IMG/VR virus record: IMGVR_UViG_2917881069_000004
DNA from: a virus
Lineage: Duplodnaviria; Heunggongvirae; Uroviricota; Caudoviricetes
DNA length: 31,007 nt
Reading direction: 5' to 3' (one strand)
Shown in pieces: positions 490 to 31,007 of this stretch (within the stretch, counting starts at the first letter, position 1; each line of letters starts with the position of its first letter). The notes under the pieces were generated by a model. It had not been told where the DNA came from. It did no database searches and saw only the letters and a program-made list of their open reading frames with translations. The position numbers and the translations under genes were made by a program.

Positions 490-1387
490 TTAAGACACGC
501 GGGCATCGTACCCATACAAGTCTTGAAAGCATGAGTAAAACAATTCTTGATTGTTGAGTTCGCCCTTTGTTTCCGGTATTTCACTCTGTAGAAAATTTTT
601 ATTAATTGTCCACTCAATAGCTAAAGTATTAGTGTAGTTTGTTGAACTACTAATTTTAGCATTATTAGGATGAAAAAGTTGCTGTATAAATTCAATATCT
701 GAATCAAGTGAAATAAAATGTATGTTTGCATTATCTTTTAATCTATCATCAAATCTAAGTTGGATAGTGGTTTTGTAATGATTAAAATCAGCAATTGGGT
801 TATAAGATGAAAAATTTTTACTTTTAAATTTTAATATCTTCTCAGCTCGTTGGCTTCCAAAGATATACATCAGAGCTACAATTGTAAACGGTTGGTTTTT
901 AAATTCATTAAACTCGTTTACTATCTCTTTAAACTCATAATATGTATTCTCTCGTTGTTCTACTTTCTTTGTTTCCCCTATTTTTTCTTGTAGCTTATCA
1001 AGGAATTTTGTTTTTTTATCTATTAATCTGTCAGTTTCTTTTTCATATATTATTTTTGATAGTTTATTTACATTGGATGTTAGGAAATCATAATCAGTGT
1101 TAGCTTCTTTAATAAATGATTTTACAATTTCACTATCCTCTATAATTAATTTTCTTATTTTTTTATTAGGTGTTTTTATGATTTCTAATTTGCCGTTACT
1201 GTCAAGTTTTTTTATGGGTTTTTCCTTCTATTATTGATAGTAAAGGTGAGAAAGTATTTCCTTTGATATCTAATGCTTTTAATTTATTAAGCATATCAAT
1301 TCTATTAGGTTCTGGGATATTAGAAGAATTGTTGTGCTTATTCATTAGATCAATTATGTTTCGATCTAAAAGGTAGAGCTCTGTCAT
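490..1387 (-). CDS. AT-rich cargo ORF of unknown function, about 298 aa if joined; split by a 1-nt frame shift at a T7/A7 tract
   Basis: Track ORFs 1202..1387 (61 aa) and 490..870 are parts of one reading frame. By hand translation the frame of 490..870 stays open up to 1227, and removing one A from the A7 run (plus-strand T7 at 1207-1213) fuses the 61-aa ORF to it (..THKK-LDSNGKLEII..). Composition is strongly AT-rich compared with the phage backbone. The N-terminus LYLLDRNIIDL resembles the first strand of PIN-like nuclease folds (weak, by eye). Confidence 0.5.
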
Positions 1388-1399
1388 AATAATTACCTT

Positions 1400-2425
1400 T
1401 TAATTAGTAGAAAAAAGAGTGGCTAAAGGATTTTTTGTCACCGCATCTTCAAGATGCTCTGGTGCGAAATGAGCATAAATCATGGTCATTTTTATATCGG
1501 TATGGCCTAAAATTTCTTTAAGCACAAGTATATTACCGCCATTCATCATAAAGTGGCTGGCGAATGTATGGCGTAGCACGTGGGTGCATTGTCCTTCTGG
1601 CAGTTCGATACCGGCCCGCTTTACTGCCCGCTCAAAGGCTTTTCTGCATGGTGTGAATAATTTCCCTCTATTTTTGGGAAGTTCGTCATACAGATCCTGA
1701 GATATTGGCACGGTACGGTTTTTCTTGCCCTTCGTCTTGGTGTATGTGATGCGGTATTTTGACAACTGGTGTCCCTGCAGATTTTCTGCTTCACTCCAGC
1801 GTGCTCCGGTGGCCAGGCATATTTTTGCAATCATCAGCAGGCTGGGGCTTTGAGAATCTGCGCAGGCATCCAACAGGCGCTTGATTTCGTCCATGGAAAG
1901 AAAGGCCAGCTCACCTTCAGCAATTTTAAATGTAGGAAGTCCTGCCAGTGGGTTTGGTGCTGACCAGTGTCCCAGCTTTTTCAGTGTGCCAAAAACCGAT
2001 GACAGGTTGCGTTGTTCAAGATTTACCGTGCGGGGCTTAACAGGCGACATAAGCGCGCCATCTTCATTTCGCACTTCACCCTTTAGCCGTGCTTCCCGGT
2101 ATTTCGTAAAATCACCGGCGGTCAGTTCTGAAGCGATGGGATCGCCCAGACCATTACAGATAATTTTAAGTTTCGCCATCAGGCGTTTGGGGTCAGCAAG
2201 CGTCTGTCCGTAAAGTGAGTACCATTGTTCAATCACTTCTGACAAATGTCGCCGATCTTCCTTTTCCCCCAGCCACGGTTTTTTGTTCACTTCTTCCATT
2301 GTGAAACGTTCAAACGCAATGGCTTCGCCTTTTGTCGCAAATTGTTTACGTACGCGTTTGCCATCTCGCCCGTTTGGGTAGCATTCACATAACCACTTTC
2401 CGTTCGGCTGTTTTCTGATCGTCAT
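1400..2425 (-). CDS. int: Tyrosine integrase (P2 Int-like)
   Basis: 341 aa. C-terminal catalytic signature visible (ARWSE, VLRHTFASH, HTDIKMTMIYAH). Adjacent to the att core. Start lies 2 nt beyond the cI stop, suggesting a cI-int operon. Confidence 0.9.
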   Translation of the reverse strand: MTIRKQPNGKWLCECYPNGRDGKRVRKQFATKGEAIAFERFTMEEVNKKPWLGEKEDRRHLSEVIEQWYSLYGQTLADPKRLMAKLKIICNGLGDPIASELTAGDFTKYREARLKGEVRNEDGALMSPVKPRTVNLEQRNLSSVFGTLKKLGHWSAPNPLAGLPTFKIAEGELAFLSMDEIKRLLDACADSQSPSLLMIAKICLATGARWSEAENLQGHQLSKYRITYTKTKGKKNRTVPISQDLYDELPKNRGKLFTPCRKAFERAVKRAGIELPEGQCTHVLRHTFASHFMMNGGNILVLKEILGHTDIKMTMIYAHFAPEHLEDAVTKNPLATLFSTN

Positions 2426-2427
2426 TA

Positions 2428-3066
2428 TTAGATGCTCTTAATCACTTTTACCACACGCCCTACAACGGCTACGTCATCAACTGCACATTCAAAGGTTGTT
2501 TCTTCCTGATGAACAACAAGCTTATTTCCGGGAATTCGAGCTACTTTTACGATGCTTTTCACTCCATCAATATCAACAAGCCAAGAGCCATTACTGATCT
2601 GTTTTACAGATACATCAACAATAAAACTTTCTGTTGTCGTTTGTATGAATAGATAGTTTGACGAATCGCCCTCAACCAACCTGCTATCTAATAAAATTTC
2701 GTCATATGATTGAAGTTCACCATTTCTTAATTCTGTGTATTTGATACTGGGAGCTACGATTTTAGAAAGTGGTCTAATTGTGACGTCATTATCATTTTTG
2801 AGAATGTTTGAGTCACAGTTATCTGCATACATATCACCCTGTCCGGTTGCCAACCAAAGAAGCGAGATCCCGGTTTCTAGAGCACATTGAATTACCCACT
2901 CTGCTGGAAAGCTATCTCTTAAGTATCTGTTTGCCATGGTGCTTTTAGATACTTTTAAGTGTTCGCAGAGTTGTTGGCGTGAGCTGAAATTGTAGGCTTT
3001 TATCAGCCTGTTGATGGCATCACGACCCCCACTATCGTTTCCACCCTTGATTAGACTCATAATCAA
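2428..3066 (-). CDS. cI: Immunity repressor, 186-type CI family
   Basis: 212 aa. Position between int and the divergent early operon. N-terminal HTH-like region (CALETGISLLWLATGQG) and C-terminal motifs (WLVDIDG, FECAVDD, GRVVKVI) resemble phage 186 CI as recalled. AAGGGG sits 7 nt upstream of the ATG. Confidence 0.7.
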   Translation of the reverse strand: MIMSLIKGGNDSGGRDAINRLIKAYNFSSRQQLCEHLKVSKSTMANRYLRDSFPAEWVIQCALETGISLLWLATGQGDMYADNCDSNILKNDNDVTIRPLSKIVAPSIKYTELRNGELQSYDEILLDSRLVEGDSSNYLFIQTTTESFIVDVSVKQISNGSWLVDIDGVKSIVKVARIPGNKLVVHQEETTFECAVDDVAVVGRVVKVIKSI

Positions 3067-3071
3067 ACCCC

Positions 3072-3100
3072 TTGACGCATATAAAATGAGATCTTAATAT
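3072..3100 (+). promoter_or_regulatory. Candidate early rightward promoter (pR-like)
   Basis: TTGACG (3072-3077), 17-nt spacer, TAATAT (3095-3100), in the cI/apl divergent intergenic region. Confidence 0.45.
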
Positions 3101-3143
3101 CCATTCATGGTTTGAAAAGCAAAACCAAACCACATAAAACGAG

Positions 3144-3425
3144 ATGATACGATTACAAACTAAGAGATACTGCACTATGAGCAACGACATTTCAATTCGT
3201 GTACCAAAAGTGATGGCGACACCAGCTGAGTTCGCGGAATGGGAAGGCCGCTCTCGCGGTTCGGTATATCAAATGATTCATAATGGAAAACTCGCTAAAT
3301 TCTTGGAAAGAAAAGAAAAACCGAAAGACAGAGTATGTATACGTTACCTTGAGTACAAAAAGGAACAAGTCAGGAAAAACATGGGCCAATCCAATTTCAA
3401 CTTTAATGTCATCGTTGGTGACTAA
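3144..3425 (+). CDS. apl: Apl/Cox-like small excisionase and switch regulator
   Basis: First gene of the rightward operon facing cI; 82-93 aa depending on start (alternative ATG at 3177, MSNDIS..). Size and position match 186 Apl / P2 Cox. Family assignment is by synteny only. Confidence 0.55.
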   Translation: MIRLQTKRYCTMSNDISIRVPKVMATPAEFAEWEGRSRGSVYQMIHNGKLAKFLERKEKPKDRVCIRYLEYKKEQVRKNMGQSNFNFNVIVGD

Positions 3426-3457
3426 GTTCAATTATGAGAACTTTCTAAGGGGGCAGC

Positions 3458-3967
3458 ATGTTTGATTACAAGATTTCCAAACATCCGCATTTTGATGAAG
3501 CCTGTAGAGCTTTTGCACTACGTCACAATATGGCGAAGCTGGCAGAACGTGCAGGAATGAATGTTCAGACACTGCGAAACAAACTCAACCCAGATCAATC
3601 GCATCAGCTCACCGCACCAGAAATCTGGCTGCTTACCGATCTGACTGAAGATTCAACGCTGGTAGATGGCTTTCTGGCACAGATTCACTGCCTGCCATGC
3701 GTACCGATTAATGAAGTGGCAAAAGAGAAACTGCCGCATTACGTCATGAGTGCAACTGCAGAGATCGGGCGTGTTGCTGCAGGTGCGGTATCTGGCGATG
3801 TAAAAACCAGTGCAGGTCGTCGTGATGCTATCAGCAGCATTAACTCTGTAACACGATTGATGGCGCTGGCGGCTGTTTCATTGCAGGCCCGTTTACAGGC
3901 TAATCCTGCGATGGCGAGTGCAGTTGATACCGTGACTGGCCTCGGTGCTTCATTCGGTTTGCTGTGA
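3458..3967 (+). CDS. cII: CII-like lysogeny establishment regulator
   Basis: 169 aa, the same length as 186 CII; follows apl; strong RBS AAGGGGG before the ATG. Confidence 0.6.
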   Translation: MFDYKISKHPHFDEACRAFALRHNMAKLAERAGMNVQTLRNKLNPDQSHQLTAPEIWLLTDLTEDSTLVDGFLAQIHCLPCVPINEVAKEKLPHYVMSATAEIGRVAAGAVSGDVKTSAGRRDAISSINSVTRLMALAAVSLQARLQANPAMASAVDTVTGLGASFGLL

Positions 3968-3974
3968 GGTGCTT

Positions 3975-4366
3975 ATGCTGACGAAAGAACCATCATTTGC
4001 ATCGCTGCTGGTAAAACAAAGCCCGGCAATGCACTACGGTCACGGCTGGATCATGGGTGAGGATGGTAAACGCTGGCATCCGTGCCGTTCACAAGATGAA
4101 TTGCTGTCTGAATTGACCACGGGGAAACGGAGAAAGTCAAAATGTATGCAGCGGAAAGTGAAGTGGTTTATCAGTTTCGTTACAGAGGGGAGAGTTATTC
4201 AGTACCTGAAGATGATTTGCTCTGTTGTTATCCGTCGTTGTCGGGCGATGGCAGTTACTTTTTCACGCTAAAGGATGGGACGTTTTTACGGGGAGAGCAG
4301 GTTAAAGAGATGATACGAAAAAATATATCTCCTCTTGAGCGTTACCGTAAGAACAAAGAGCGATAG
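3975..4366 (+). CDS. Early-region hypothetical protein, about 130 aa; apparent 1-nt frame shift near 4125-4140
   Basis: Track ORFs 3945..4271 and 4142..4366 overlap in different frames. Adding one A in the agaaag run joins them (..GKRRKVKMYAAESEVVY..). Confidence 0.45.
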
Positions 4367-4388
4367 TTGCGTTTTGGGGATATGAATT

Positions 4389-4730
4389 ATGGCAATTAAT
4401 GGCGCTGCGGCGACTGTTCCATTAAGCCCAGGTGAACGCCTGAATGGACTTAATCATATTGCGGAATTAAGGGCGAAAGTATTTGGCCTGAATATTGAGT
4501 CAGAGCTTGAGCGGTTTATTAAAGATATACGTGATCCACGGGATGTTAATTATGAACGAAATAAACGGGCACTGGCTGCTATATTCTTTATAGCAAAAAT
4601 TCCAGCTGAACGTCATAGCATCAGCATTAATGAGCTGACCACTGACGAAAAGCGGGAGTTGATTAAAGTAATGAATCATCTTCGTGCAGTGGTGAGCTTA
4701 TTTCCCAGACGGCTAGCCATGCCGAATTAA
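4389..4730 (+). CDS. Early-region hypothetical protein
   Basis: 113-aa ORF co-directional with the early operon; no recognisable motif. Confidence 0.5.
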   Translation: MAINGAAATVPLSPGERLNGLNHIAELRAKVFGLNIESELERFIKDIRDPRDVNYERNKRALAAIFFIAKIPAERHSISINELTTDEKRELIKVMNHLRAVVSLFPRRLAMPN

Positions 4731-4791
4731 CCAATTAATGAAATTCATGGCGTAAACCCGCCGGGCATTCCTTTATCTAAATTCAGGAGAA

Positions 4792-5031
4792 TTGATTATG
4801 CGTAATATTGAAACCCTCTCGACTAAAACCGGACCGGATGACGCAGGACTTAATATTTTACTGACAGAGGCTCGTCTGGAAGAACGTCGGGCAAGAGCTG
4901 AAGCAATGGCAGCTCGCCTTGATAGCCTTGCGTGCCATATCACATCCCGCCAGCTAAACCACGTTGAAGCGGCTGAACTGCTGCGTGTGGCAGCTGAAGC
5001 AATCCAGAACGAAGCGCAGGAGATCCACTAA
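4792..5031 (+). CDS. Early-region hypothetical protein
   Basis: 79-aa ORF (alternative ATG at 4798 preceded by CAGGAGA); stop overlaps the next start. Confidence 0.5.
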   Translation: MIMRNIETLSTKTGPDDAGLNILLTEARLEERRARAEAMAARLDSLACHITSRQLNHVEAAELLRVAAEAIQNEAQEIH

Positions 5032-5258
5032 TGGCTGATGCAATGGATCTCGTACAGCAGCGCGTTGAAGAAGAACGCCAGCGTCATATCCGTGCCGCCC
5101 GTGCCAAAACGCCGGGCGTGTCCCGCGTGCTTTGCATTGAGTGTGAAGCGCCAATTCCGCCAGCACGCCGCCGTGCCATTCCGGATGTGCAGCTTTGCAT
5201 TACCTGTCAGGAAATCGCAGAGCTGAAAGGCAAACATTACAACGGAGGTGCTGTATGA
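5031..5258 (+). CDS. TraR/DksA-family C4 zinc-finger protein
   Basis: 75 aa with CIEC...x17...CITC, the CxxC-x17-CxxC spacing typical of TraR/DksA-type phage proteins. Its stop overlaps the Dam start (ATGA). Confidence 0.7.
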   Translation: MADAMDLVQQRVEEERQRHIRAARAKTPGVSRVLCIECEAPIPPARRRAIPDVQLCITCQEIAELKGKHYNGGAV

Positions 5259-6112
5259 GCACCATCCTGAAATGGGCGGGAAATAAAACCGCCATTATGT
5301 CCGAACTGAAAAAGCATCTTCCTGCTGGCCCGCGACTGGTTGAACCTTTCGCGGGTTCCTGTGCAGTGATGATGGAGACGGAGTACCCCAGCTATCTTGT
5401 TGCGGATATTAATCCTGATTTAATCAACCTCTATAAAAAGGTTGCTGCTGATTGTGAATCGTTTATATCTCGCGCCAGAGTTTTATTTGAGATCGCAAAC
5501 AGGGAGGTGGCTTATTACAACATAAGGCAGGAGTTTAATTACTCAACTGAAATTACTGATTTCATGAAAGCGGTATATTTCCTGTATCTCAATCGTCACG
5601 GTTACCGTGGTTTATGTCGCTATAACAAGAGCGGGCATTTCAACATTCCCTACGGTAATTATAAAAATCCGTATTTCCCTGAAAAAGAAATTCGCGCATT
5701 TGCAGAAAAAGCCCAGCGAGCAACGTTTATCTGCGCCAGCTTTGATGAAACGCTGGCGATGTTGAAGGCGGGGGATGTGGTGTATTGCGATCCGCCGTAT
5801 GACGGTACGTTTTCCGGCTATCACACTGATGGCTTCACTGAGGATGACCAGTATCACCTGGCATCCGTTCTTGAACATCGATCATCTGAAGGTCATCCGG
5901 TCATTGTTTCTAACAGTGACACATCCCTGATTCGTTCGCTGTATCGCAATTTCACTCACCACTACATCAAGGCAAAACGCAGCATCGGCGTGTCGGCTGG
6001 CGAGAGTAAATCTGCAACAGAAATCATTGCTGTTTCCGGGGCGCGCTGCTGGGTGGGATTTGATCCTTCGCGTGGCGTGGATAGTTCTGCTGTGTACGAG
6101 GTGCGTGTATGA
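5255..6112 (+). CDS. dam: DNA N6-adenine methyltransferase (Dam-like), orphan
   Basis: About 285 aa starting [11 protein letters not shown] with GGAGG 7 nt upstream. Motif I-like PFAGSCAV and catalytic DPPY ([10 protein letters not shown]) are present. No adjacent restriction endonuclease candidate. Confidence 0.85.
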
Positions 6113-8522
6113 GTCATGACGATATGAGCAACTCTAGCGGCTTTAACGAGGCCGCAGCAGCATTTTCATGGAACGGCCCGAAAAAGGCCATTAACCCTTA
6201 TCTGGACCCGGCGGAAGTTGCGCCGGTTTCTGCGCTTTCAAACCTGATCACTCTGTACGCTGCCGATAACGAGCAGGAACAACTGCGCCGCGAGGCACTG
6301 AGTGATCAGGTCTGGGAGCGTTATTTCTTTAATGAATCCCGTGATCCTGTCCAACGCGAAATGGAGCAGGATAAGCTCATTAGCCGGGCAAAGCTGGCGC
6401 ATGAGCAGCAGCGTTTTAATCCAGATATGGTCATTCTGGCGGACGTCAATGCCCAGCCTTCCCATATCAGCAAGCCGCTGATGCAACGTATTGAATACTT
6501 CAGCAGCCTGGGCAGGCCAAAGGCTTATTCCCGCTATTTGCGTGAGACGATTAAGCCATGTCTGGAACGACTGGAGCATGTACGCGACAGTCAGCTATCC
6601 ACTTCTTTTCGCTTTATGGCAAGCCATGAAGGGCTGGACGGCCTGCTGATCCTGCCTGAAATGAGTCAGGATCAGGTGAAACGCTTGTCTACCCTTGTCG
6701 CTGCGCATATGAGCATGTGCCTTGATGCAGCTTGTGGCGATTTGTATGTCACCGATGACGTTAAGCCAGAAGAAATCCGCAATACATGGGAAAAGGTGGC
6801 AGCGGAAACCCTGCGTCTGGATGTCATCCCGCCTGCGTTTGAGCAACTCCGCCGGAAAAGAAACCGCCGTAAACCCGTGCCCTATGAACTCATTCCGGGT
6901 TCGCTGGCGCGTATGTTGTGCGCTGACTGGTGGTACCGGAAATTATGGAAGATGCGTTGCGAATGGCGGGAAGAGCAGTTGCGTGCTGTCTGCCTGGTCA
7001 GCAAAAAAGCATCTCCCTATGTCAGCTATGAAGCCGTGATGCATAAACGTGAGCAGCGCCGTAAGTCGCTGGAGTTTTTTCGTTCTCATGAACTGGTGAA
7101 CGAAGACGGCGACACGCTGGACATGGAGGATGTGGTAAACGCCAGCAGCAGCAACTCTGCGCATCGCCGCAATGAGATGATGGCCTGTGTTAAAGGCCTG
7201 GAGCTTATCGCGGAAATGCGCGGTGACTGCGCCGTTTTCTACACCATCACCTGTCCGTCACGTTTCCATTCCACGCTAAATAACGGCAGGCCCAACCCGA
7301 CCTGGACAAATGCGACGGTAAGACAAAGCAGTGATTATCTGGTCGGCATGTTTGCTGCATTTCGTAAGGCGATGCACAAAGCCGGATTGCGCTGGTATGG
7401 CGTGCGGGTGGCTGAGCCGCATCATGACGGTACAGTTCACTGGCACCTGTTGTGTTTTATGCGCAAAAAAGATCGCCGCGCCATTACTGCTTTGTTGCGT
7501 AAGTTTGCCATTCGTGAAGACCGCGAGGAGCTGGGGAATAACACGGGACCACGCTTTAAGTCTGAGTTGATTAACCCGCGCAAAGGAACGCCGACAAGCT
7601 ACATCGCGAAATATATCAGCAAGAACATTGACGGGCGTGGTCTGGCTGGCGAGATCAGCAAGGAAACGGGTAAATCTCTGCGTGATAACGCTGAATACGT
7701 TAATGCCTGGGCGTCTCTGCATCGTGTTCAGCAATTCCGCTTCTTTGGTATTCCGGGGCGTCAGGCTTACCGTGAACTGCGATTGCTGGCTGGTCAGGCG
7801 GCAAGGCAACAGGGCGACAAAAAGCAGGTGCGCCGGTACTGGATAACCCGCGCCTTGATGCCATCCTGGCTGCTGCTGATGCTGGTTGTTTTGCCACTTA
7901 CATCATGAAGCAGGGTGGTGTACTGGTTCCCCGCAAATATCACCTCATCAGAACTGCTTATGAAATTAACGAAGAGCCGACCGCCTATGGCGATCACGGC
8001 ATTCGTATTTATGGCATCTGGTCACCCATTGCAGAGGGCAAGATCTGCACTCATGCAGTGAAGTGGAAAATGGTTCGTAAAGCCGTTGACGTTCAGGAGG
8101 CGGTAGCCGACCAGGGCGCTTGCGCCCCTTGGACTCGTGGCAATAACTGTCCCCTTGCTGAAAATTTGAACCAACATGAGAAAGATAAATCAGCAGACGG
8201 GGATACCAGAACGGACATTTCCTGCATGGATGACAAGGAATTGCACGATTACCTGCACAGTATGGGCAAAAAAGAGCACCGGGAACTGGCAGCAAGATTA
8301 CGCCTGGTTAAACCGAAACGGCGTAAAGACCACAAACAGCGAATTACAGACCATCAGCGTCAGCAGCTCGTCTATGAACTGAAGTCCAGAGGATTTGATG
8401 GCAGCGAGAAAGAAGTCGATTTACTGCTTCGTGGCGGCAGTATTCCGTCAGGAGCAGGCCTGCGTATCTTCTATCGGAACCAGCGTTTGCAGGAAGATGA
8501 TAAGTGGCGGGATCTGTATTAA
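6109..8522 (+). CDS. A: Rolling-circle replication initiator (P2 gpA-like); apparent 1-nt frame shift near 7810-7820
   Basis: HUH-type motif [10 protein letters not shown]. Track ORFs 6109..7908 and 7905..8522 are continuous in sense (..QGDKK / [32 protein letters not shown]..) if the A5 run is A6. Confidence 0.8.
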
Positions 8523-8615
8523 TTACGCGGGTTAACAATTCGTGCTCTTAATAATACCAGGCATATCAGGCTGATGAACGTAAAAAAAACGTTTTACATC
8601 AGTAAGATTATTATA

Positions 8616-8635
8616 TACTGTAAATATAAACAGTG
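8616..8635 (+). promoter_or_regulatory. LexA (SOS) box overlapping a candidate promoter
   Basis: TACTGTAAATATAAACAGTG fits CTGT-N8-ACAG and matches 17 of 20 positions of the consensus TACTGTATATATATACAGTA. A -35-like TTTACA lies at 8593-8598. The box is 42 nt upstream of the 8677 ATG. Confidence 0.7.
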
Positions 8636-8676
8636 GTTATATATACAGTGTTGCGTATGGTGTTATAGGAGGAAAG

Positions 8677-8865
8677 ATGCAGGACTATTTTTGGGAGTCT
8701 TTGAAGCTCCAGCGCATTGATTTTTTTCTTAAGCTTGTAGCGGCTAGTGAGTGTAGCGATGAAGAGAAGGGGCTGGCTCTGCAGTGGGTTTCTGAATTGA
8801 CTGATGAGTTGATGGCGAAAATTCGAAGCCATGAATACAGTAGGTCGATGGATGTAATCAGTTGA
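8677..8865 (+). CDS. Small protein (62 aa) under a LexA box; candidate SOS-induced antirepressor or moron
   Basis: Strong RBS (TAGGAGGAAAG then ATG). Occupies the position of 186 tum (between A and cos) in a phage with a 186-type CI. No sequence resemblance to DinI recognised. Confidence 0.55.
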   Translation: MQDYFWESLKLQRIDFFLKLVAASECSDEEKGLALQWVSELTDELMAKIRSHEYSRSMDVIS

Positions 8866-8898
8866 GCTTGTTTCGTTAGGACTTGATAAGGGAACCGA

Positions 8899-8919
8899 AA
8901 AGGGGCATTAAGCCCCTTT
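8899..8919. terminator. Bidirectional hairpin between convergent genes
   Basis: AAAGGGGC-attaa-GCCCCTTT, an 8-bp stem, between the stop of 8677..8865 (+) and the stop of 8933..9232 (-). Flanking U-tracts are short. Confidence 0.45.
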
Positions 8920-8932
8920 CTCATAAGTTGAT

Positions 8933-9232
8933 TTAGTTGTTCCCCAAAGAGCCGGCCATGGCTGCATATTTAATTTCTTCGCTGGGTATTTCAGGATGTA
9001 GTTGAATTTGCCTGATGACATAGCCAGGAACTTCGTCACTCCACAGTTTCGCCGCGTCCTTACAGACCTTATACGCGAAGTCTCTATTCTCAAAGGCATA
9101 GGATTTTCCGTATGCATATTGCTGACAGGCATGAACATAAGCTCCGAAGTCGCCGTCTTTATCTGGCAAAGCACATCCAGCCAAGGCTATGATGATTGCT
9201 ACTAACGTAAAGGAGAAAGTTATACGTTTCAT
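8933..9232 (-). CDS. Small lipoprotein (99 aa), unknown function
   Basis: Signal peptide with lipobox LAGC (MKRITFSFTLVAIIIALAGC..). Located in the A-Q variable island. Confidence 0.65.
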   Translation of the reverse strand: MKRITFSFTLVAIIIALAGCALPDKDGDFGAYVHACQQYAYGKSYAFENRDFAYKVCKDAAKLWSDEVPGYVIRQIQLHPEIPSEEIKYAAMAGSLGNN

Positions 9233-9340
9233 GGTCTCTTTCTAAGCGTTTAGCATTATTTAACTAAGGGGTATCTGCCGTGATTTGGTAGTCCCTGATA
9301 TATATTCTCAGGGACTATGCTGAAGTAGCTTTAATTTCGA

Positions 9341-10147
9341 TTATTTAGAAAGGTACTTATCTCTAAGTTGATTCAGTCTGTCAGCATCGCGTTCTGAAAA
9401 CTCGGCGTCACCATAGATCGATTTCCCATCTGCGTCTTCAAGGCCAATGACTGTGACGGTAAATATAGCATCAGCCGGAACTTTAAGTTTTCCCCAATCA
9501 GAGTATCTATTAGGGGCTAATTTCCAGTTGGCTTTCTCACCTGGTTCCAGACCTCCAGAAATTTTATAGTTGAAGACGTCAGAGAACCAAGGGACGCTTC
9601 TTCCTGGACTGGCAATAACTCCTTTGAAGAATACTCTGGCAACCGCTTTGTCTGTTCCGTTTTCAACGCTAATATCCAGAATTGGCTGATCATTGCCGTA
9701 ATCCTCTTTCTGGAAATAAAAACGGGAACGTTCGACCTTGAAGGCTTTCATTTTTTCCGCAGCCTGTGTTGCAGAGGTTTGTTTGGCTTCCAGTTCTTTT
9801 ATTTCTTGCAGAGCCTGTTCTTTCTCTCTCTTCTCACGCTCAAGGCGAATAGTTTGTGCGTAATTTATAACCTCATCACCAGTTTTACCTTCCAACGCTG
9901 ACTTAATTTTTGTTTCGTAGACGTCCCCAGAAGACGTTCCAGCCTGCATTAGCTCTCTCATGTTGATTTGGCTAAAGGCAACGACTTTAACTGCATCATC
10001 AAACTGAGCTTTTTTATCTGCAGGTAAGGACTCTCTTACTTTTTGAATGGACTCTTTCATCGACTGATCGCTTGATGCATCGATCTTCGGTTTGTCACAA
10101 GCAGTAAGCAGCAGAGCAAAAGCAATTACGCCAGTTAATTTCTTCAT
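9341..10147 (-). CDS. Lipoprotein (about 267 aa), unknown function
   Basis: Track ORF 9341..10219. The likely true start is the internal ATG at 10147 (MKKLTGVIAFALLLTAC, lipobox LLTAC), because the upstream extension is the translation of a hairpin plus T-run. Central Lys/Glu-rich predicted coiled region. Confidence 0.65.
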   Translation of the reverse strand: MKKLTGVIAFALLLTACDKPKIDASSDQSMKESIQKVRESLPADKKAQFDDAVKVVAFSQINMRELMQAGTSSGDVYETKIKSALEGKTGDEVINYAQTIRLEREKREKEQALQEIKELEAKQTSATQAAEKMKAFKVERSRFYFQKEDYGNDQPILDISVENGTDKAVARVFFKGVIASPGRSVPWFSDVFNYKISGGLEPGEKANWKLAPNRYSDWGKLKVPADAIFTVTVIGLEDADGKSIYGDAEFSERDADRLNQLRDKYLSK

Positions 10148-10161
10148 ATCCCTATCCCAAT

Positions 10162-10662: not shown

Positions 10663-10681
10663 GGCGTGGCGGGGATACGAG
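10663..10681. other. cos site (cohesive-end region)
   Basis: GGCGTGGCGGGGATACGAG resembles the 19-nt cohesive ends of P2 (GGCGAGGCGGGGAAAGCAC) and 186 as recalled. Correct position between the variable island and portal gene Q. Confidence 0.6.
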
Positions 10682-21493: not shown

Positions 21494-22091
21494 TCTGCTG
21501 CCACCGGGTTCAACGCCACTGGAGCGCCGACTGGCGCAAGCGTGCAGCGGGATTTCTGATTTGCAGGTACCGCTGCGTGACCTGTGGGATCCGGCTACCT
21601 GTCCGGTCAGTTTCCTGCCTTATCTCGCCTGGGCGTTCTCTGTGGATCGCTGGGACGAGGACTGGACGGAAAGCGTCAAGCGCCAGGTGGTAAAGGATGC
21701 TTTTTATATCCATCAGCATAAAGGAACCACCAGTGCCGTGCGGCGGGTGGTGGAGCCGTTCGGCTTTCTGATCCGCATTATTGAGTGGTGGCAGACCGGA
21801 GAGACACCGGGCACGTTTCGCCTGGACATCGGCGTGCAGGACCAGGGCATCACTGAAGATACCTATCTGGAACTTGAGCGGCTGATAAGCGATGCCAAAC
21901 CATGTAGCCGTCACATGATCGGCATGTCCATCAATCTGCAGACCAGCGGCCCGCATTGGGTGGGGGCAGCCAGTTATCTTGGCGAAGAAATCACGATCTA
22001 TCCGTATATCAACGAAACAATTATTTCTGGCGGCACCGCGCATGAAGGCGGGGCGGTCCACGTTATTGACACAGTGAGAGTGAATCCATGA
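21486..22091 (+). CDS. I: Baseplate/tail protein (P2 gpI-like)
   Basis: 201 aa, overlapping J's stop; position before the tail fibre gene. Confidence 0.75.
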   Translation: MNSLLPPGSTPLERRLAQACSGISDLQVPLRDLWDPATCPVSFLPYLAWAFSVDRWDEDWTESVKRQVVKDAFYIHQHKGTTSAVRRVVEPFGFLIRIIEWWQTGETPGTFRLDIGVQDQGITEDTYLELERLISDAKPCSRHMIGMSINLQTSGPHWVGAASYLGEEITIYPYINETIISGGTAHEGGAVHVIDTVRVNP

Positions 22092-23491
22092 GCACAAAAT
22101 TTTATACCCTGCTGACGGAGATTGGTGCGGCGAAACTTGCCAGCGCCGCCGCGCTCGGTGTGCCGCTTAAAATTACCCATATGGCGGTGGGGGATGGTAG
22201 TGGAGCATTGCCGACGCCGGACGCAAAGCAGACTGCACTGGTAAATGAGAAACGCCGGGCTGCGCTGAATATGCTCTATATCGACCCGCAAAACAGCAGT
22301 CAGATTATTGCTGAACAGGTGATCCCTGAAAACGAGGGCGGTTGGTGGATACGTGAAGTGGGACTTTTTGATGAGTCAGGGGCATTGATTGCCGTGGGCA
22401 ACTGCCCGGAAAGCTACAAGCCGCAACTGGCTGAAGGCAGCGGGCGCACCCAGACTGTGCGCATGGTGCTGATTACCAGCAGCACGGAGAATATCATCCT
22501 GAAAATCGACCCTGCCGTCGTGCTGGCAACCCGCAAGTATGTGGATGATAAGGTACTGGAGCTGAAGGTGTACGTGGATGACCTGATGGCAAAACATCTT
22601 GCCGCACCGGACCCGCATTCACAGTACGCGCCAAAAGCCAGCCCGACGTTTACCGGAACCCCCAAAGCGCCAACTCCAGAGGCAGGGAATAACACCACGC
22701 AGGTTGCGACCACCGCGTTTGTTCAGGCGGCACTGCTCACCCTGATTGACGGTGCGCCAGCCACGCTGGACACGCTGAAAGAAATTGCAGCTGCTATTAA
22801 TAATGACCCGAAATTCAGTACCACCATTAACAATGCGCTGGCACTCAAAGCACCGCTGTCGAGTCCTGCACTCACCGGAACGCCAACAGCACCTACTGCG
22901 GCACAGTCGGTCAACAATACACAGATTGCCACCACGGCTTTTGTGAAATCGGCAATTGCGGCAATGGTGGGTTCTGCACCTGCGGCACTGGATACGCTGA
23001 ACGAACTGGCGGCGGCGCTGGGGAATGACCCGAACTTTGCCACGACAATGCTCAATTCGCTGGCGGGAAAACAACCGCTGGATAATACGCTGACTAATTT
23101 GAGTGGAAAGGATGTTGCTGGTCTTCTCGCATACCTTGGTTTGGGAGAAGCGGCAAAACGGGATGTGGGAACGGGGGTAAATCAGATACCGGATATGAGC
23201 TTTCAGGGTTATGGGCCTAATTGGGTCAAAACTGTAGGTGGAATGATTATTCAAAAGGGATCGCTGGGATTTAGTATTGGTTCAAATCTATCAAGCACTA
23301 CATTTCCGATCGCGTTTGCTTCAGGGGCAGTAGTCAATCTAACGTGGTCTGACGTCACGTCAGGTGGCGCAGCTCCGGGGACTACAATGTCTTATGGAAT
23401 AGTCGTGGGGTCACAAACCAGGACAGGTTTTCAGGCCTGGATGAGTGGTGCCGGTGGATTCAACCTCTCATATATAGCTGTGGGGTATTGA
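22088..23491 (+). CDS. H: Tail fibre protein (P2 gpH-like)
   Basis: 467 aa. N-terminus MSTKFYTLLTEIGAAKLASAAALG is typical of P2-family fibres; internal tandem motifs (PTFTGTPKAPT..TTAFVQAAL / PALTGTPTAPT..TTAFVKSAI). Confidence 0.85.
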   Translation: MSTKFYTLLTEIGAAKLASAAALGVPLKITHMAVGDGSGALPTPDAKQTALVNEKRRAALNMLYIDPQNSSQIIAEQVIPENEGGWWIREVGLFDESGALIAVGNCPESYKPQLAEGSGRTQTVRMVLITSSTENIILKIDPAVVLATRKYVDDKVLELKVYVDDLMAKHLAAPDPHSQYAPKASPTFTGTPKAPTPEAGNNTTQVATTAFVQAALLTLIDGAPATLDTLKEIAAAINNDPKFSTTINNALALKAPLSSPALTGTPTAPTAAQSVNNTQIATTAFVKSAIAAMVGSAPAALDTLNELAAALGNDPNFATTMLNSLAGKQPLDNTLTNLSGKDVAGLLAYLGLGEAAKRDVGTGVNQIPDMSFQGYGPNWVKTVGGMIIQKGSLGFSIGSNLSSTTFPIAFASGAVVNLTWSDVTSGGAAPGTTMSYGIVVGSQTRTGFQAWMSGAGGFNLSYIAVGY

Positions 23492-23919
23492 TAATGAAAT
23501 ACAGATATTCTGGCGAGACAAATTCTTTTTATCCCTGGGCATTATTTGATGATTACACGCGAGTTAATGCATGGCCTGAAAATGGGGTGGATGTTGACGA
23601 AGATATTTTTACGGAATATAGCGGCACACCGCCAGAAGGCAAAACTCGCGGCCCGGATGTTAATGGGAAACCATCATGGATAGATGCACAGCCACCATCT
23701 AAAAAAGAACAAATTATCGCTGCGGACTTTCAGAAATCAGCATTACTGGCGGAGGCAACGGCGATTATCGCCCCACTGGCAGATGCTCAGGCAGGAGGCT
23801 ACATCGACGATGTTGACGTGCCACGTCTGGCTGAATGGCAGCGGTACCGCTACAAACTGACTAAAGTCGATACCAGTACCGCGCCTGACATTACCTTTCC
23901 ACCGAAGCCGGAGGTGTAG
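23488..23919 (+). CDS. G: Tail fibre assembly chaperone (P2 gpG-like)
   Basis: 143 aa with C-terminus ..YRYKLTKVDTSTAPDITFPPKPEV, typical of Tfa chaperones. Confidence 0.8.
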   Translation: MIMKYRYSGETNSFYPWALFDDYTRVNAWPENGVDVDEDIFTEYSGTPPEGKTRGPDVNGKPSWIDAQPPSKKEQIIAADFQKSALLAEATAIIAPLADAQAGGYIDDVDVPRLAEWQRYRYKLTKVDTSTAPDITFPPKPEV

Positions 23920-24028
23920 GCCATTTGATATCTGGTGCGATGGTCGTATCTACCACCTCAAGCGCATCCAGATAATCTGGCCATGTATAGAAAATTTCCG
24001 GCAAATAAGAGCAATGAATCGCCCTGAA
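23894..24028 (-). pseudogene. Remnant of an inverted second tail-fibre-assembly gene (C-terminal 45 codons, no start codon)
   Basis: Minus-strand open frame reads ..LPEIFYTWPDYLDALEVVDTTIAPDIKWPTPPASVER, parallel to the C-terminus of G (VDTSTAPDITFP). It converges tail-to-tail on G and overlaps its last codons. Confidence 0.5.
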
Positions 24029-24075
24029 TCAGCATTATTTTGATTTTTTCTGTGAGCGGACAAATACCGTCATTT

Positions 24076-24093
24076 TGTGTGAATAACGGTACA
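24076..24093 (+). promoter_or_regulatory. Late-promoter activator dyad TGT-N12-ACA (PF-like)
   Basis: TGTgtgaataacggtACA, centred about 85 nt upstream of the FI ATG; CAGGAGG RBS at 24155-24161. Confidence 0.55.
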
Positions 24094-24169
24094 ACTGCGC
24101 TTAGCTGTTTGTCAGGCACAATCACTTCAATATAGGGCGAAGCCTAATCCAATCAGGAGGTTCGCCACT

Positions 24170-25341
24170 ATGGCTCAGGATTACCACCACGGGGTGCGCG
24201 TTGTTGAAGTCAACGAAGGCACCCGATCCATTACCACGGTGAGCACCGCCATCGTGGGTATGGTCTGCACGGGCGATGATGCCGATGCAAAAATGTTTCC
24301 TCTTAATAAACCCGTGCTGATCACTGATGTACTGACCGCCAGCGGTAAAGCGGGTGAGTCCGGCACGCTGGCCCGTTCGCTGGATGCCATCGCTGACCAG
24401 GCAAAACCCGTGACCGTTGTTGTGCGTGTGCCGCAGGGTGAAACGGAAGAAGAAACCACGACCAATATCATCGGCGCAGTGACTGCTGAAGGTAAAAAAA
24501 CAGGCATGAAAGCCCTGTTATCTGCCCAGACACAGCTCGGCGTTAAACCGCGCATTCTCGGCGTGCCAGGTCACGATAACAAAGCCGTTGCTACTGAGTT
24601 GCTGAGTGTGGCGCAAAGCTGCGTGGGTTTGCCTACCTGTCAGCGTATGGCTGCAAGACGGTACAGGAGGCGATCACTTACCGTGAAAACTTCAGCCAGC
24701 GCGAAGGAATGCTGATCTGGCCTGACTTTACTGGCTGGGACACGGTGCTGAATGCCGAAGCAATGGCATATGCCACCGCTCGTGCGCTTGGTCTGCGTGC
24801 CAAAATTGATGAGCAGACCGGGTGGCACAAAAGCCTGTCCAACGTGGGCGTGAACGGTGTCACCGGAATTTCTGCAGATGTGTTCTGGGATCTGCAGGAC
24901 CCGGCAACCGATGCAGGTCTGCTGAACCAGAACGACGTCACCACGCTTGTGCGTAAAGACGGGTTCCGCTTCTGGGGTTCCCGCTGTCTGAGCGATGATC
25001 CGCTCTTTGCCTTCGAAAACTACACCCGCACGGCGCAGGTGCTGACGGACACAATGGCAGAAGCGCATATGTGGGCGGTGGACAAACCGCTGAACCCGTC
25101 GCTGGCCCGCGACATTATCGAAGGTATCCGCGCCAAAATGCGCAGCCTGGTCAGTCAGGGCTATCTCATTGGTGGTGATTGCTGGCTGGACGAGTCGGTG
25201 AATGACAAAGACACGCTGAAAGCCGGAAAACTCACCATCGATTACGACTACACGCCAGTACCGCCACTTGAAAACCTGATGCTGCGTCAGCGCATCACCG
25301 ATCAGTACCTGGTGAATTTCTCCAGCCAGGTAAGCGCGTAA
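24170..25341 (+). CDS. FI: Tail sheath protein (P2 gpFI-like); apparent 1-nt frame shift near 24616-24620
   Basis: Track ORFs 24170..24715 and 24709..25341 sum to about 390 aa (P2 FI is about 396 aa). The frame is restored if caaag is caaaag (..[41 protein letters not shown]..). Confidence 0.8.
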
Positions 25342-25920: not shown

Positions 25921-26223
25921 ATGAGCGATAAGCAGACTGAAAAGACCATTCAACTGGATACTCCCATCATGCGCGGTAAAACAGAAATTACCGAAATTGT
26001 GTTGCGTAAACCGCAGTCCGGTGCGCTGCGCGGCACACGCCTGCAGGCCATTATGGATATGGATGTGAACGCGATGATGACCGTGATCCCCCGCATCTCC
26101 AGTCCGGCACTGACTGCACAGGAAATTGCAGAGCTGGATCCGGCAGATCTCACTGCCATGTCGGTTGAGGTTGTCACTTTTTTGTTGAAGAAGTCGGTGC
26201 TTGCCGGTTTACCGACAGCCTGA
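25921..26223 (+). CDS. E: Tail assembly chaperone E; an E+E' fusion to 26357 is expected by -1 frame shift
   Basis: 100-aa ORF just upstream of the tape measure gene. The -1 frame is open from the slippery site to a stop at 26355-26357, overlapping the T start. Confidence 0.75.
   Translation: MSDKQTEKTIQLDTPIMRGKTEITEIVLRKPQSGALRGTRLQAIMDMDVNAMMTVIPRISSPALTAQEIAELDPADLTAMSVEVVTFLLKKSVLAGLPTA
26178..26184 (+). other. Programmed -1 ribosomal frameshift site (slippery heptamer T_TTT_TTG) for E/E+E'
   Basis: TTTTTTG in X_XXY_YYZ register relative to the E frame, at the conserved position near the 3' end of E. The equivalent chaperone frameshift is established for P2 E/E' and lambda G/GT. Confidence 0.7.
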
Positions 26224-26349
26224 CGGTTGACGATCTGGTGGCTGATATCGCCACCATCTTTCACTGGCCGCCATCCGTTACTGACGTTATGCCGCTGACC
26301 GAAGTGCTGGAATGGCGGTATAAAGCGATTCAGAGAAGCGGGGCCAGCC

Positions 26350-29300
26350 ATGAGTGACAATAACCTGCGTCTGCAGGTGATTCTGAATGCGGTTGACAAG
26401 CTCACCCGCCCATTTCGATCCGCGCAGGCCAGTTCAAGAGAACTGGCTGCTGCTGTCAAAAAATCCCGCGATGCAATAAAGCAGCTTGATCAGGCCGGGA
26501 GCAGTCTGGACAGCTTCCGAAAGCTGCAGGCAGAAAATCAGAAATTAGGCGACAGGCTGAACTATGCCCGCCAGCGTGCAAATTTACTCAGTCATGAACT
26601 GGGATCAATGGGGCCGCCTTCGCAACGTCAGGTTGTTGCTCTGGGCCGTCAACGGCTGGCTGTTCAGCGCCTGGAAGAACGCCAGAAAAAGCTGCAGCAG
26701 CAGACGGCGCTTGTGCGTGCAGAACTTTATCGTGCTGGTATTTCAGCTAATGATGGCGCCAGTGCGACGGCCCGCATTACCCGTGAAACGATGCGTTATA
26801 ACAGGCAGCTTTCTGAGCAGGAAGCGAGGTTACGACGTGTCGGGGAGCAACAGCGAAAAATGCACGCCGCCCGGGGGGCTTACGCCAGGCGTCTTGAAGT
26901 AAGGGATCGGATTGCCGGGGCCGGAGCCACCACCACGGCTGCAGGGCTGGCAATGGGCGCACCAGTGATGGCGGCAGTAAAAAGCTATACCAGCATGGAA
27001 GATGCCATGAAAGGTGTGGCAAAGCAGGTCAATGGTCTGCGTGACGATAATGGCAACCGCACTGCGCGTTTTTACGAAATGCAGGATGCCATCAAGGCTG
27101 CCAGCGAACAGTTGCCGATGGAAAACGGTGCTGTGGACTTCGCCGCACTGGTTGAAGGTGGTGCGCGCATGAACGTCGCAAACCCTGACGACAGTTGGGA
27201 AGACCAGAAACGTGACCTGCTGGCCTTCGCCAGCACGGCGGCAAAGGCGGCAACAGCCTTTGAGCTGCCAGCGGATGAACTGTCAGAAAGTCTGGGGAAA
27301 ATCGCCCAGCTCTACAAAATCCCTACACGCAATATTGAACAGCTCGGTGACGCGCTGAACTATCTGGATGATAACGCCATGTCGAAAGGGGCAGACATCA
27401 TTGATGTCATGCAACGCCTGGGCGGTGTGGCTGACCGTCTGGATTATCGTAAAGCGGCGGCGCTGGGTTCAACCTTCCTGACACTGGGCGCTGCGCCGGA
27501 GGTTGCAGCCAGTGCAGCAAACGCGATGGTGCGTGAATTGTCCATTGCCACCATGCAGAGCAAGAGTTTCTTTGAAGGAATGAATCTGCTGAAACTCAAT
27601 CCTGAAGTGATTGAAAAGCAGATGACGAAGGATGCGATGGGAACCATCCAGCGCGTACTGGAGAAGGTGAATGCGCTTCCGCAGGATAAGCGCCTGTCTG
27701 CCATGACCATGTTGTTTGGTAAAGAGTTTGGCGATGACGCGGCGAAACTGGCAAACAACCTGCCGGAACTGCAGCGCCAGCTAAAACTGACAGCGGGCAA
27801 TGATGCGCTCGGCTCCATGCAGAAAGAATCCGACATTAACAAGGATTCACTTTCTGCGCAGTGGTTGCTGGTCAAAACCGGAGCGCAGAACACCTTCAGC
27901 AGCCTGGGCGAAACGCTGCGCCAGCCGCTGATGGATATTCTGTACACGGTGAAAAGCGTCACGGGGGCGTCGCGTCGCTGGGTGGAAGCTAACCCGGAAC
28001 TGACGGGCACACTGATGAAAGTAGCCGCTGTTGTGGCTGCGGTTACCGTGGGCCTCGGCACCCTGGCTGTGGTGTTGGCTGCAGTGCTGGGGCCGCTGGC
28101 AGTCATCCGTCTGGGATTCTCTGTGCTGGGTATCAAGACGTTACCTTCGGTGACGGATGCAGTAACACGAACCAGCAGCGCGTTATCCAGGCTGGCAGGC
28201 GCGCCACTGGCAGTACTGCGACGCGGGTTTGCTTCATCGGGGAGCAGTGCGGGTTTGCTTACTGCGCCGCTGTTGTCTTTGCGCCGCACGGCATCACTGA
28301 CGGGAAATGCCCTGAAAACTGTGGCAGCTGCGCCTGTTGCACTGTTGCGGTCCGGTTTATCCGGTTTACGTGCTGTTGCCTTGATGTTTATGAATCCACT
28401 GGCGGCACTGCGCGGTGGACTGACTGCCGCAGGTGCAGTGTTGCGAGTGCTGGCATCCGGTCCGCTGGTGATGCTGCGCGTTGCCCTGTATGCCATATCT
28501 GGTCTGTTAGGTGCTCTGCTCAGTCCGATAGGTCTTGTGGTTACTGCACTGGCGGGCGTGGCGCTGGTTGTCTGGAAATACTGGCAACCCATCACCGCAT
28601 TTCTCGGTGGCGTGGTGGAAGGATTCAAAGCGGCGGCAGGTCCCATCAGTGCCGCATTCGAACCACTTAAGCCCGTGTTTCAGTGGATTGGTGACAAAGT
28701 GCAGGCTCTGTGGGGCTGGTTTACTGATCTGCTGACGCCCGTTAAGTCGACCTCTGCCGAACTGCAGAGCGCAGCGGCAATGGGGCGACGATTCGGGGAG
28801 GCGACTGGCAGAAGGGCTGAATATGGTCATGCATCCGCTGGACTCCCTGAAATCCGGCGTTTCCTGGTTGCTGGAGAAACTCGGCATTATCAGTAAAGAG
28901 GCTGCAAAGGCGAAACTGCCGGAAAGCGTGACGCGTCAGCAACCCGCAACAGTGAATGCAGACGGCAAAGTGATGATGCCATCAGGTGGTTTTCCGTCAT
29001 GGGGATATGGCTTTGCGGGGATGTATGACAGCGGCGGGTATATCCCGCGCGGGCAGTTTGGCATCGTCGGTGAAAACGGGCCGGAAATTGTTAACGGCCC
29101 GGCAAATGTGACCAGCCGGAGAAATACAGCTGCACTGGCTGCCGTTGTTGCCGGAATGATGGGCGTTGCTGCCGCGCCAGCAGAGCTTCCACCGTTGCAT
29201 CCTTTGGCGCTTCCCGCGAAAGGCGGCAAAGCGATGGTGAGTCGCGCAGCTACTGTGCCGCCCGTTCACCGGATTGAGGCACCGACGCAGATCATCATCC

Positions 29301-29428
29301 AGACGCAGCCAGGACAAAGTGCGCAGGATATTGCGCGGGAGGTGGCCCGCCAGCTTGATGAACGTGAACGCAGGCTGAAGGCAAAAGCCAGGAGTAACTA
29401 CAGCGATCAGGGGGGATACGACGCATGA
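26350..29428 (+). CDS. T: Tail tape measure protein (P2 gpT-like); apparent 1-nt frame shift near 28790-28825
   Basis: Track ORFs 26350..28896 and 28823..29428 overlap in different frames. The second carries a typical tape-measure C-terminal region (GGYIPRGQFGIVGENGPEIVNGPANVTS). Coiled Ala/Leu/Gln-rich body. Confidence 0.8.
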
Positions 29429-29909
29429 TGATGGTGCTGGGATTGTATGTGTTTATGCTGCGCACCGTACCGTATCAGGAACTGCAGTATCAACGCAGCT
29501 GGCGACATGCGGCTAACAGTCGGGTAAACCGTCGTCCGTCCACGCAGTTTCTGGGACCGGACAACGACATGCTGACGCTTTCTGGTGTTCTTATGCCGGA
29601 GATAACAGGCGGCAGGCTGTCGTTGCTGGCACTGGAGCAGATGGCAGAACAGGGGAAAGCATGGCCCCTGATTGAAGGCAGCGGCACGATTTATGGCATG
29701 TATGTGATTGAGGGACTGAATCAGACTAAAACGGAGTTTTCCGCGACGGTATGCCGCGCCGGATTGAGTTCACCCTGTCGCTCAAACGGGTGGATGAATC
29801 TCTGTCCGATATGTTCGGTGATCTCAGTGCGCAACTGAATAATCTGCAGGAAACGGCAACATCTGCTTTAAGCGATATCAGTAAAACGGTGGGAGGGCTG
29901 CTGTCGTGA
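29425..29909 (+). CDS. U: Tail protein (P2 gpU-like); apparent 1-nt frame shift near 29745-29755
   Basis: Track ORF 29425..29838 (137 aa). Adding one T to a T4 run gives ..TEFFRDGMPRRIEFTLSLKRVDESLSDMFGDLSAQLNNLQETATSALSDISKTVGGLLS, ending at the stop at 29907-29909; total about 161 aa (P2 U is 159 aa). Confidence 0.75.
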
Positions 29910-31007
29910 ATTTCAGCTCTGAACTGCTTAACAAAGGCAACAAAACTCCCGCATTCAGCATCAGTATTGAGGGCAGGGAGTATCACTACTGTCCTGGATA
30001 AGCGCCTGATGAGTCTGACGCTGACGGACAACCGGGGCTTTGAAGCAGACCAGCTTGATCTGGAGCTGGACGACGCCGACGGAAAAATCGTGCTGCCGCG
30101 CCGTGGTGCGGTCATTACGCTGGCGCTGGGCTGGAAGGGGCAGCCGCTTTTCCCGAAAGGGGCATTCACGGTGGACGAGATTGAACACACTGGCGCACCG
30201 GACCGCCTGACTATCCGGGCGCGAAGTGCTGATTTTAGGGAAACGCTGAATACCCGCCGCGAAAAATCGTGGCACAAGACCACTGTCGGGGAAGTGGTGA
30301 AGGAAATAGCCGCACGTCACAAGCTGAAGATGGCACTGGGTAAAGACCTGTCGGATAAGCCCGTGGAGCATATAGACCAGACTAATGAGAGTGACGGTAG
30401 TTTTCTGATGCGGCTGGCGCGCCAGTACGGTGCTATTGCGTCGGTGAAAAATGGCAATCTGTTATTCATCCGGCAGGGACAGGGTAAAAGTGCCAGCGGT
30501 AAACCACTGTCGGTGATCACTATCACACGTAAGGACGGCGACAGTCACCGCTTTACCCTGGCAGATCGCGGAGCTTACACGGGCGTAATTGCCAGCTGGT
30601 TGCATACCCGCGAACCCACGAAGAAAGAAAGCACTACAGTGAAGCGTAAGCGCAGGACTAAGGCCCAGAAGAAAGAGCCGGAAGCGAAGCAGGGCGATTA
30701 CCTGGTGGGGACGGATGAAAACGTGCTGGTACTTAATCGCACTTATGCCAACCGGAGCAACGCCGAACGAGCGGCGAAAATGCAGTGGGAACGCCTGCAA
30801 CGCGGTGTTGCGTCATTCTCACTACAACTGGCAGAAGGGCGGGCGGATCTCTACACGGAAATGCCAGTGAAAGTCAGTGGCTTTAAACAGCCGATAGATG
30901 ATGCGGAATGGACCATTACGACTCTGACGCATACCGTCAGCCCGGATAACGGTTTTACGACCGGTATTGAACTTGAAGTGAAAATTGATGATCTTGAAAT
31001 GGAATAA
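29906..31007 (+). CDS. D: Tail/late protein D (P2 gpD-like); apparent 1-nt frame shift near 29975-29985
   Basis: Short N-terminal frame from the GTG at 29906 (..NKTPAFSISIEGR..) joins the 346-aa track ORF 29967..31007 (..ITTVLDKRLMSLTLTDNRGFEADQLDLELDD..) if a ggg run is gg. The stop is the last codon of the window. Confidence 0.75.

Follow-up and report, generated by a model that had tools for sequence, protein, structure and literature searches.

The stretch of DNA analysed here (the window; 31,007 nucleotides, IMG/VR record IMGVR_UViG_2917881069_000004) is a P2-like (Peduoviridae) prophage, in which ten genes are interrupted by a total of eleven one-base frame shifts. Its DNA is 94–95% identical to that of Escherichia phage Cartapus and of many E. 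coli P2-type prophages, and counterparts of 45 proteins from the intact E. coli prophage in NZ_CP168035.1 (locus L003) were found by tblastn to be collinear across the window. The gene order of P2 is kept, running from int, CI, and cox/CII to A, and then through Q P / O N M L X, the lysis genes, and R S V W J I H G FI FII E E' T U D ogr. A perfect 46-bp direct repeat is present at 294–339 and again at the 3' end of ssrA just past the right end of the window. With this repeat at both ends, the prophage is therefore integrated in the tmRNA gene ssrA and is about 31.7 kb long.

The source was traced by an exact-protein look-up with the integrase, which led to contig PDIG01000035.1 (GCA_004745185.1). 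The window is 100% identical to this contig over 1–12425 and 12088–31007, which jointly span it. According to the genome announcement of PDIG00000000, the strain is Escherichia cryptic clade II E2661 (PMC6639607), and the chromosomal flank, which is about 94% identical to complete genomes of E. coli, fits an origin in a cryptic clade. No sister strain with the same prophage turned up, and the tail fibre protein H and its assembly protein G are confined to the E2661 assembly and its own reads. The E2661 draft was built with the assemblers MIRA and SPAdes from single-end Ion Torrent reads of 35–400 nt at 40x coverage (PMC6639607). This coverage is the joint lowest in that study, and Ion Torrent is the sole read type (PMC6639607). 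The record is thus the product of flow-based sequencing and was not polished with data of any other kind.

For the analysis of the frame shifts, a panel of 172 related loci was used, made up of finished E. coli genomes, phage Cartapus, drafts that share the integrase, and 160 contigs from IMG/VR, and at each site the length in the window was set against the length in the relatives. With intact homologues, tblastn revealed frame changes in A, P (twice), O, S, FI, T, U, and D, as well as a truncated match in X, and each frame change was resolved to a single-base indel in the nucleotide alignments. Altogether, there are eleven coding indels in ten genes. At ten sites 75–105 related loci were compared, and at the site in a cargo open reading frame (ORF) five; essentially all of the relatives differ from the window at each of the eleven.

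The cargo ORF (490–1387, minus strand, 298 aa) adjoins the integrase gene. It contains a T7 run (A7 on the coding strand) at 1207–1213 that is one base longer than the T6 of the relatives (5 of 5 differ), and it is thereby split into ORFs of 61 and 126 aa. Gene A, for the replication endonuclease (6109–8522, plus strand), has A5 at 7819–7823 in place of A6, 80 of 81 relatives being one base longer; its tblastn match passes from frame 1 to frame 3, and the truncated product has 599 aa. An exact look-up of this product gave no match; pseudogenes are not translated by the Prokaryotic Genome Annotation Pipeline (PGAP), and A is split differently in a second assembly (Logan, below). The terminase ATPase gene P (11885–13646, minus strand) is shifted twice, with C for CC at 12283 (86 of 86 relatives one base longer) and G for GG at 13330 (78 of 78 one base longer). 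In the capsid scaffold gene O (13789–14621, plus strand), the run at 14353–14357 is A5, and it is A6 in all 75 relatives compared. Near the 3' end of the tail gene X (16910–17119, plus strand), C replaces CC at 17094 (97 of 97 relatives one base longer), so that the product has 69 aa and a changed C-terminus, where relatives have 67 aa; the tblastn match covers only residues 1–62 of 67.

Downstream, the tail completion gene S (19148–19595, plus strand) has A4 at 19349–19352 where A3 is expected, the relatives being shorter in 105 of 105 cases. The tail sheath gene FI (24170–25341, plus strand) has C at 24619 where all 86 relatives have one base more (CC). Two indels are extra G's outside any run, one at 28803 (GGC[G]ACT) in the tape measure gene T (26350–29428, plus strand), absent from 78 of 78 relatives, and the other at 29980 (GGGA[G]TAT) in gene D (29906–31007, plus strand), absent from 75 of 75. 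Between them, in the tail gene U (29425–29909, plus strand), the run at 29737–29740 is T4, and 77 of 78 relatives have T5. A twelfth frame shift of the prophage falls shortly past the end of the window, at coordinate 31559 in a BRCT-like gene after ogr; a long T run there has one base more than in any of the seven relatives that cover it.

An earlier note on this DNA, made from the sequence alone, had listed eleven sites of interruption. Ten of these are indeed one-base indels, each within about 20 nt of the position given. The remaining one, a frame shift in an early hypothetical gene at about 4130, is not an indel, as no length difference was found from any of 34 relatives; the list also missed the shift in X at 17094, so that its total of eleven sites in ten genes nonetheless stands.

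Undoing one base per site converts the ten genes into single open frames, which align end to end, with zero gaps and 87–100% identity, with their intact homologues. With one T removed, the cargo ORF encodes 298 aa, a sequence 100% identical to the protein at another locus (L004), and gene P with both corrections encodes 588 aa, 99.8% identical to WP_001098431.1. The corrected lengths of the other products are 804 aa for A, 277 aa for O, 67 aa for X, 148 aa for S, 390 aa for FI, 1025 aa for T, and 161 aa for U. The proposal that a one-base correction would restore full length was thus borne out at every site, and so was the observation that substitution-derived stops and internal deletions are missing, since after the one-base repairs all ten genes align from end to end without gaps. 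No insertion sequence (IS), nonsense mutation, or deletion accompanies the eleven shifts in the ten affected genes. The protein identity after each shift is 90–100% and about equal to that preceding it; gene A is the exception (98% before and 93% after). Signs of relaxed selection, such as mixed types of lesion or raised divergence 3' of the shifts, were not seen, all the lesions being one-base indels.

Five of the eleven sites are in runs of at least 3 bases, four are 2-mers cut to a single base (CC to C or GG to G), and two are outside runs. Nine of the indels therefore alter the length of a run of at least two identical bases, and the other two are the G insertions. Runs of at least 5 bases hold 4 of the 11 sites, though they make up 2.1% of the bases (P = 6e-5), and all seven deletions fall in runs of at least 2 (P = 0.004). 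The earlier description of the shifts as lying mostly at homopolymers is correct as far as a significant enrichment in runs is concerned, but with five of eleven sites in runs of 3 or more they are not mainly errors of long homopolymers. The two inserted G's each come after a G run and one other base; this could be a signature of phasing, on which no weight is placed here.

The chromosomal flank was retrieved over 8.6 kb on the left side of the window and 2.5 kb on its right side, and a scan of genome contigs for references gave Escherichia sp. MOD1-EC7003, with 90–94% DNA identity. Two one-base insertions were found in gabT and one in glaH, the proteins being otherwise 92–99% identical to those of E. 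coli; PGAP called no product for either gene. Counting coding frame shifts only (non-coding indels were left out for want of a close reference), the density is 3 in 8.46 kb of chromosomal coding sequence (0.355/kb) and 11 in 27.1 kb of prophage (0.406/kb), which is not a significant difference. A concentration of lesions in the prophage relative to the flank, as would be expected of a cryptic prophage, was thus not found, and the equal density in gabT and glaH indicates that the lesions are not specific to the prophage. Extrapolated to the whole genome, the rate corresponds to roughly 1500–1750 broken genes. E2661 was isolated on selective agar and grown in overnight LB culture (PMC6639607), and for such a strain a number of this size is not credible.

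A second assembly, the Logan contigs of SRR6148326, covers 310–10014, 10931–23165, 23140–24499, and 24514–31956 (about 30.7 kb). By its sequence, SRR6148326 almost certainly represents the same reads as the E2661 record. Over the shared 30.7 kb, the two assemblies show zero substitutions and five differences in run length. Ten of the eleven indels are common to both. Those at 1207–1213 and 7819–7823 are also present in contig L262, those at 12283, 14353–14357, 17094, and 19349–19352 in L260, and those at 24619, 28803, and 29737–29740 in L263. The exception is the G at 29980, which L263 does not have, and gene D is called intact there (366 aa). Conversely, deletions at 6679 (A3 to A2), 7003 (A6 to A5), and 8829 (CC to C) occur in the Logan assembly only, and the first two split gene A further in it. 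The fifth difference is a run at 8582, A12 in Logan vs A8 in the record. Both assemblies therefore contain errors of run length of the kinds discussed here, and neither can serve as the true sequence. The recurrence of ten of the eleven shifts in both implies that most reads carry them, and that they arose in the reads and not through the fault of a single assembler. The earlier note had left the choice between sequencing and assembly error undecided. With ten of the eleven repeated in the second assembly, the errors are mainly in the reads and not in the assembly step. The Logan contigs of the prophage (L262, L260, L258, and L263) are short, at 1.4–12 kb.

The indels may be compared with the published error profile of Ion Torrent's Personal Genome Machine (PGM), on which long homopolymers are under-called and short ones over-called (Bragg et al. 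2013, PMC3623719). The same study describes 'high-frequency indels' (HFI), which are found in most reads at a given position, occur about once per 1–2 kb of reference, and are mostly single-base (PMC3623719). Only 29% of them are in homopolymers, and they are typically A/T insertions or C/G deletions (PMC3623719). Strand-asymmetric HFI occur mainly in 2–3-mers, most HFI are not reproducible between runs, and frame shifts in assemblies result from them (PMC3623719). The window, with about one indel per 2.5 kb, single-base, without substitutions, and in part outside homopolymers, resembles this class. In it, three 5–6-mers are under-called, C/G is deleted at four 2-mers, and A/T is inserted at 1213 and 19352, as in Ion Torrent errors. 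On the other hand, two of its four insertions are G rather than the A/T of typical HFI. The fit to the published profile is close in rate and spectrum, the two properties compared here; the diagnostic properties of HFI are strand asymmetry and a lack of reproducibility between runs.

Taken together, the platform, the correction test, the density in the flank, the second assembly, and the published error profile uphold the preference of the earlier note for systematic run-length error over decay, and it can be stated with high confidence that the eleven frame shifts are an Ion Torrent sequencing artefact and not decay of the phage. Flow-based base-calling errors would have been fixed in the deposited consensus, most reads having the wrong run length at the affected positions. 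The errors would be of several types, namely under-called 5–6-mers, 2-mers that have lost a C/G, over-called A/T, and spurious insertions of a single base; jointly they would make up the HFI class, so that any assembler given these reads would be expected to repeat most of them. In the actual prophage, all ten genes are most likely intact.

Several observations weigh against the artefact. The identification of SRR6148326 with the E2661 reads is itself drawn from sequence identity and from the proteins found in these two records only. The presence of 10 of the 11 indels in both assemblies also means that most reads support them, and on Ion Torrent reads alone a real mutation is formally possible at any single site. 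The chromosomal comparison comprises about 8.5 kb, three events, and non-essential genes only, and the nearest chromosomal references are only 90–94% identical. Finally, an independent, unrelated prophage assembly, L191 (IMGVR_UViG_2917849834_000001; also L102), has the same T5 to T4 change in U, at about 14386 of L191, and no other coding indels. The change in U could thus be genuine and recurrent, or it could be a recurrent error at a T5 run.

The last point gives rise to the alternative that survives best, namely that most of the indels are errors and one or a few are genuine, the T5 to T4 change in U being the best candidate. L191 is about 96% identical to the window, shares no near-identical tract with it, and has T4 at the same position. 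Descent of the T4 from a recombinant tract shared with L191 was considered and rejected, because mismatches flank the T4 on both sides. However, T5 is the allele of 77 of 78 relatives, runs of this length are typically under-called on the platform, and the recurrence of T4 in a second prophage assembly could equally be a recurrent error. Such a mixture is considered unlikely. Somewhat less likely still is its specific form in which at least one indel is genuine, with U as the candidate, at a recurrent hot spot of slippage, the others being errors. If it were true, slippage in U would switch off tail completion in P2-like prophages.

A recently inactivated, defective prophage, in which all the indels are real slippage mutations, is very improbable. 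It would accommodate the fact that an independent assembly of the reads repeats ten of the eleven indels, the preference of replication slippage for homopolymers, and the T4 allele of U in an otherwise clean prophage elsewhere. The window also resembles cryptic P2-like prophages of Escherichia in being a P2-type element integrated in ssrA with many late genes that are untranslatable as deposited. Real prophage remnants, however, have mixed lesions (deletions, IS elements, stops, and lost modules) that are confined to the element, whereas the window has one-base indels at the rate of the flank. The same density of frame shifts in the chromosomal genes gabT and glaH, the occurrence of eleven shifts with zero nonsense mutations, deletions, or IS elements, and the 87–100% protein identity 3' of the shifts all speak against decay. 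So does the insertion in D, which is missing in the second assembly, while that assembly has extra shifts of the same kind in gene A; moreover, the platform is known for exactly such a pattern.

A genuine mismatch-repair-deficient hypermutator, with homopolymer indels throughout the genome, would account for indels both inside and outside the prophage. The at least ~1500 frame-shifted genes that it implies are incompatible with isolation on selective agar and overnight growth in LB. In addition, run lengths differ between the two assemblies of one set of reads, a discrepancy that real mutations would not produce, and these assemblies show zero substitution differences. This explanation is thus regarded as extremely improbable, even more so than decay.

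Recoding, by programmed ribosomal frame shifting or transcriptional slippage, and a natural division into separate shorter genes may practically be dismissed, because the relatives in the panel are in frame as single genes at all eleven sites, which already refutes it, and because recoding sites would be conserved among relatives, whereas each of the eleven occurs in a single record only. One programmed -1 frame shift is indeed found in P2-like phages, that of the tail chaperone E/E+E', and its site, TTTTTTG at 26178–26184, is present and unaltered in the window. E (25921–26223) is in frame 1 and E' (26238–26357) in the -1 frame, and the T6 run has the same length as in the relatives. The eleven indels bear a resemblance to it as a frame change at a T run inside a tail gene, but the E/E+E' site is conserved in all the relatives without an indel, in contrast to the private length changes at the eleven sites.

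With the frame shifts attributed to Ion Torrent error, the consequences concern annotation only, and no new biology is involved. As deposited, ten genes of the window, one just past its end, and gabT and glaH nearby have the appearance of pseudogenes, and the prophage would therefore be scored as defective. Analyses of gene content, pseudogenes, or prophage integrity that use this assembly would be biased. The same bias probably extends to the other fifteen clade II drafts of the same study, given the shared platform. A new mapping or assembly of these reads will not remove the indels, because most of them are carried by the reads themselves. Mapping of the raw reads would probably mislead here, as the sole reads are Ion Torrent reads in which most of the errors are present. 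Frame-aware annotation, or re-sequencing on an independent platform, is needed; meanwhile, gene boundaries are best taken from the corrected frames, and the prophage should be treated as probably intact.

A few further length differences are of less certain status. The non-coding A8 run at 8582–8589 is of unreliable length. The closest relatives of the window have A7, and across the panel A7 is found in 36 loci, A8 in 7, and A6 in 3, so that the site is ambiguous. A one-base difference at 14633 is a natural polymorphism, and with 70 of 74 the allele of the window is that of the majority. Insertions of one base at 128, 199, and 211, in non-coding sequence of the left flank and the attL region, are private to the window. 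Like the length differences of the A8 run and at 31559, they are probably errors of the same kind as the eleven, but they are left unclassified, because the references there are only 86–88% identical.

The region around 4130, wrongly suspected of a frame shift, contains two overlapping genes. The Fil ORF (3975–4271, plus strand) encodes 98 aa and matches PF10893 at positions 1–54 of 56. A 74-aa ORF overlaps it in another frame (4142–4366, plus strand); its product is 100% identical to WP_021576389.1, and it is an annotated gene of its own in finished genomes. The overlap is a natural arrangement, identical in 34 relatives, and lies outside the artefact. The possibility of an ancestral frame shift inside Fil, shared with the relatives, was rejected, since PF10893 is complete in one frame. 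The annotation by PGAP is not consistent here, one genome being given an intact Fil and others an 'incomplete Fil' plus a hypothetical protein.

The 298-aa cargo ORF (490–1387), at the attL end, has no Pfam match; other Escherichia genomes encode, at the same position, a protein 100% identical to its corrected product. The CI repressor (2428–3060) is only 55% identical to that of the NZ_CP168035.1 prophage, which is otherwise 95–99% identical to the window; the same CI is found in five drafts that share the integrase. The immunity region is mosaic. A variable cargo slot at 8866–10842, between the A/DinI region and the portal gene Q, holds a DUF6694 lipoprotein gene (9341–10219) and a 99-aa ORF (8933–9232). 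In the relatives, the same slot is occupied by genes for a Cap4-type nuclease or by DUF4145, DUF262, or AIPR genes, and from this gene content it looks like a hot spot for P2 defence or moron genes. At 23894–24024 there are remnants of an invertible tail-fibre segment, namely part of a second tail-fibre assembly gene, on the minus strand, and the final 14 codons of the invertase. The full inversion module is present in relatives; its loss from the window is a natural deletion, and the same arrangement exists in some E. coli genomes.

A related prophage record, CP019275.1 (L001), which may serve as an example of uncorrected long-read consensus errors, resembles the window in having many one-base indels. 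PGAP places 'frameshifted' flags on its integrase, CI, Dam, and A genes. It differs from the window in coming from a different project and in having its indels at other positions, concentrated in the early region. The record, deposited as 'plasmid p13P477T-2', is a 37-kb circle that contains a P2-like prophage together with the chromosomal genes ssrA, smpB, bamE, recN, and nadK, with many 'frameshifted' calls by PGAP. The same region is also present in the chromosome of that strain (NZ_CP019273.1), and the 'plasmid' looks like a misassembled, unpolished duplicate of it.

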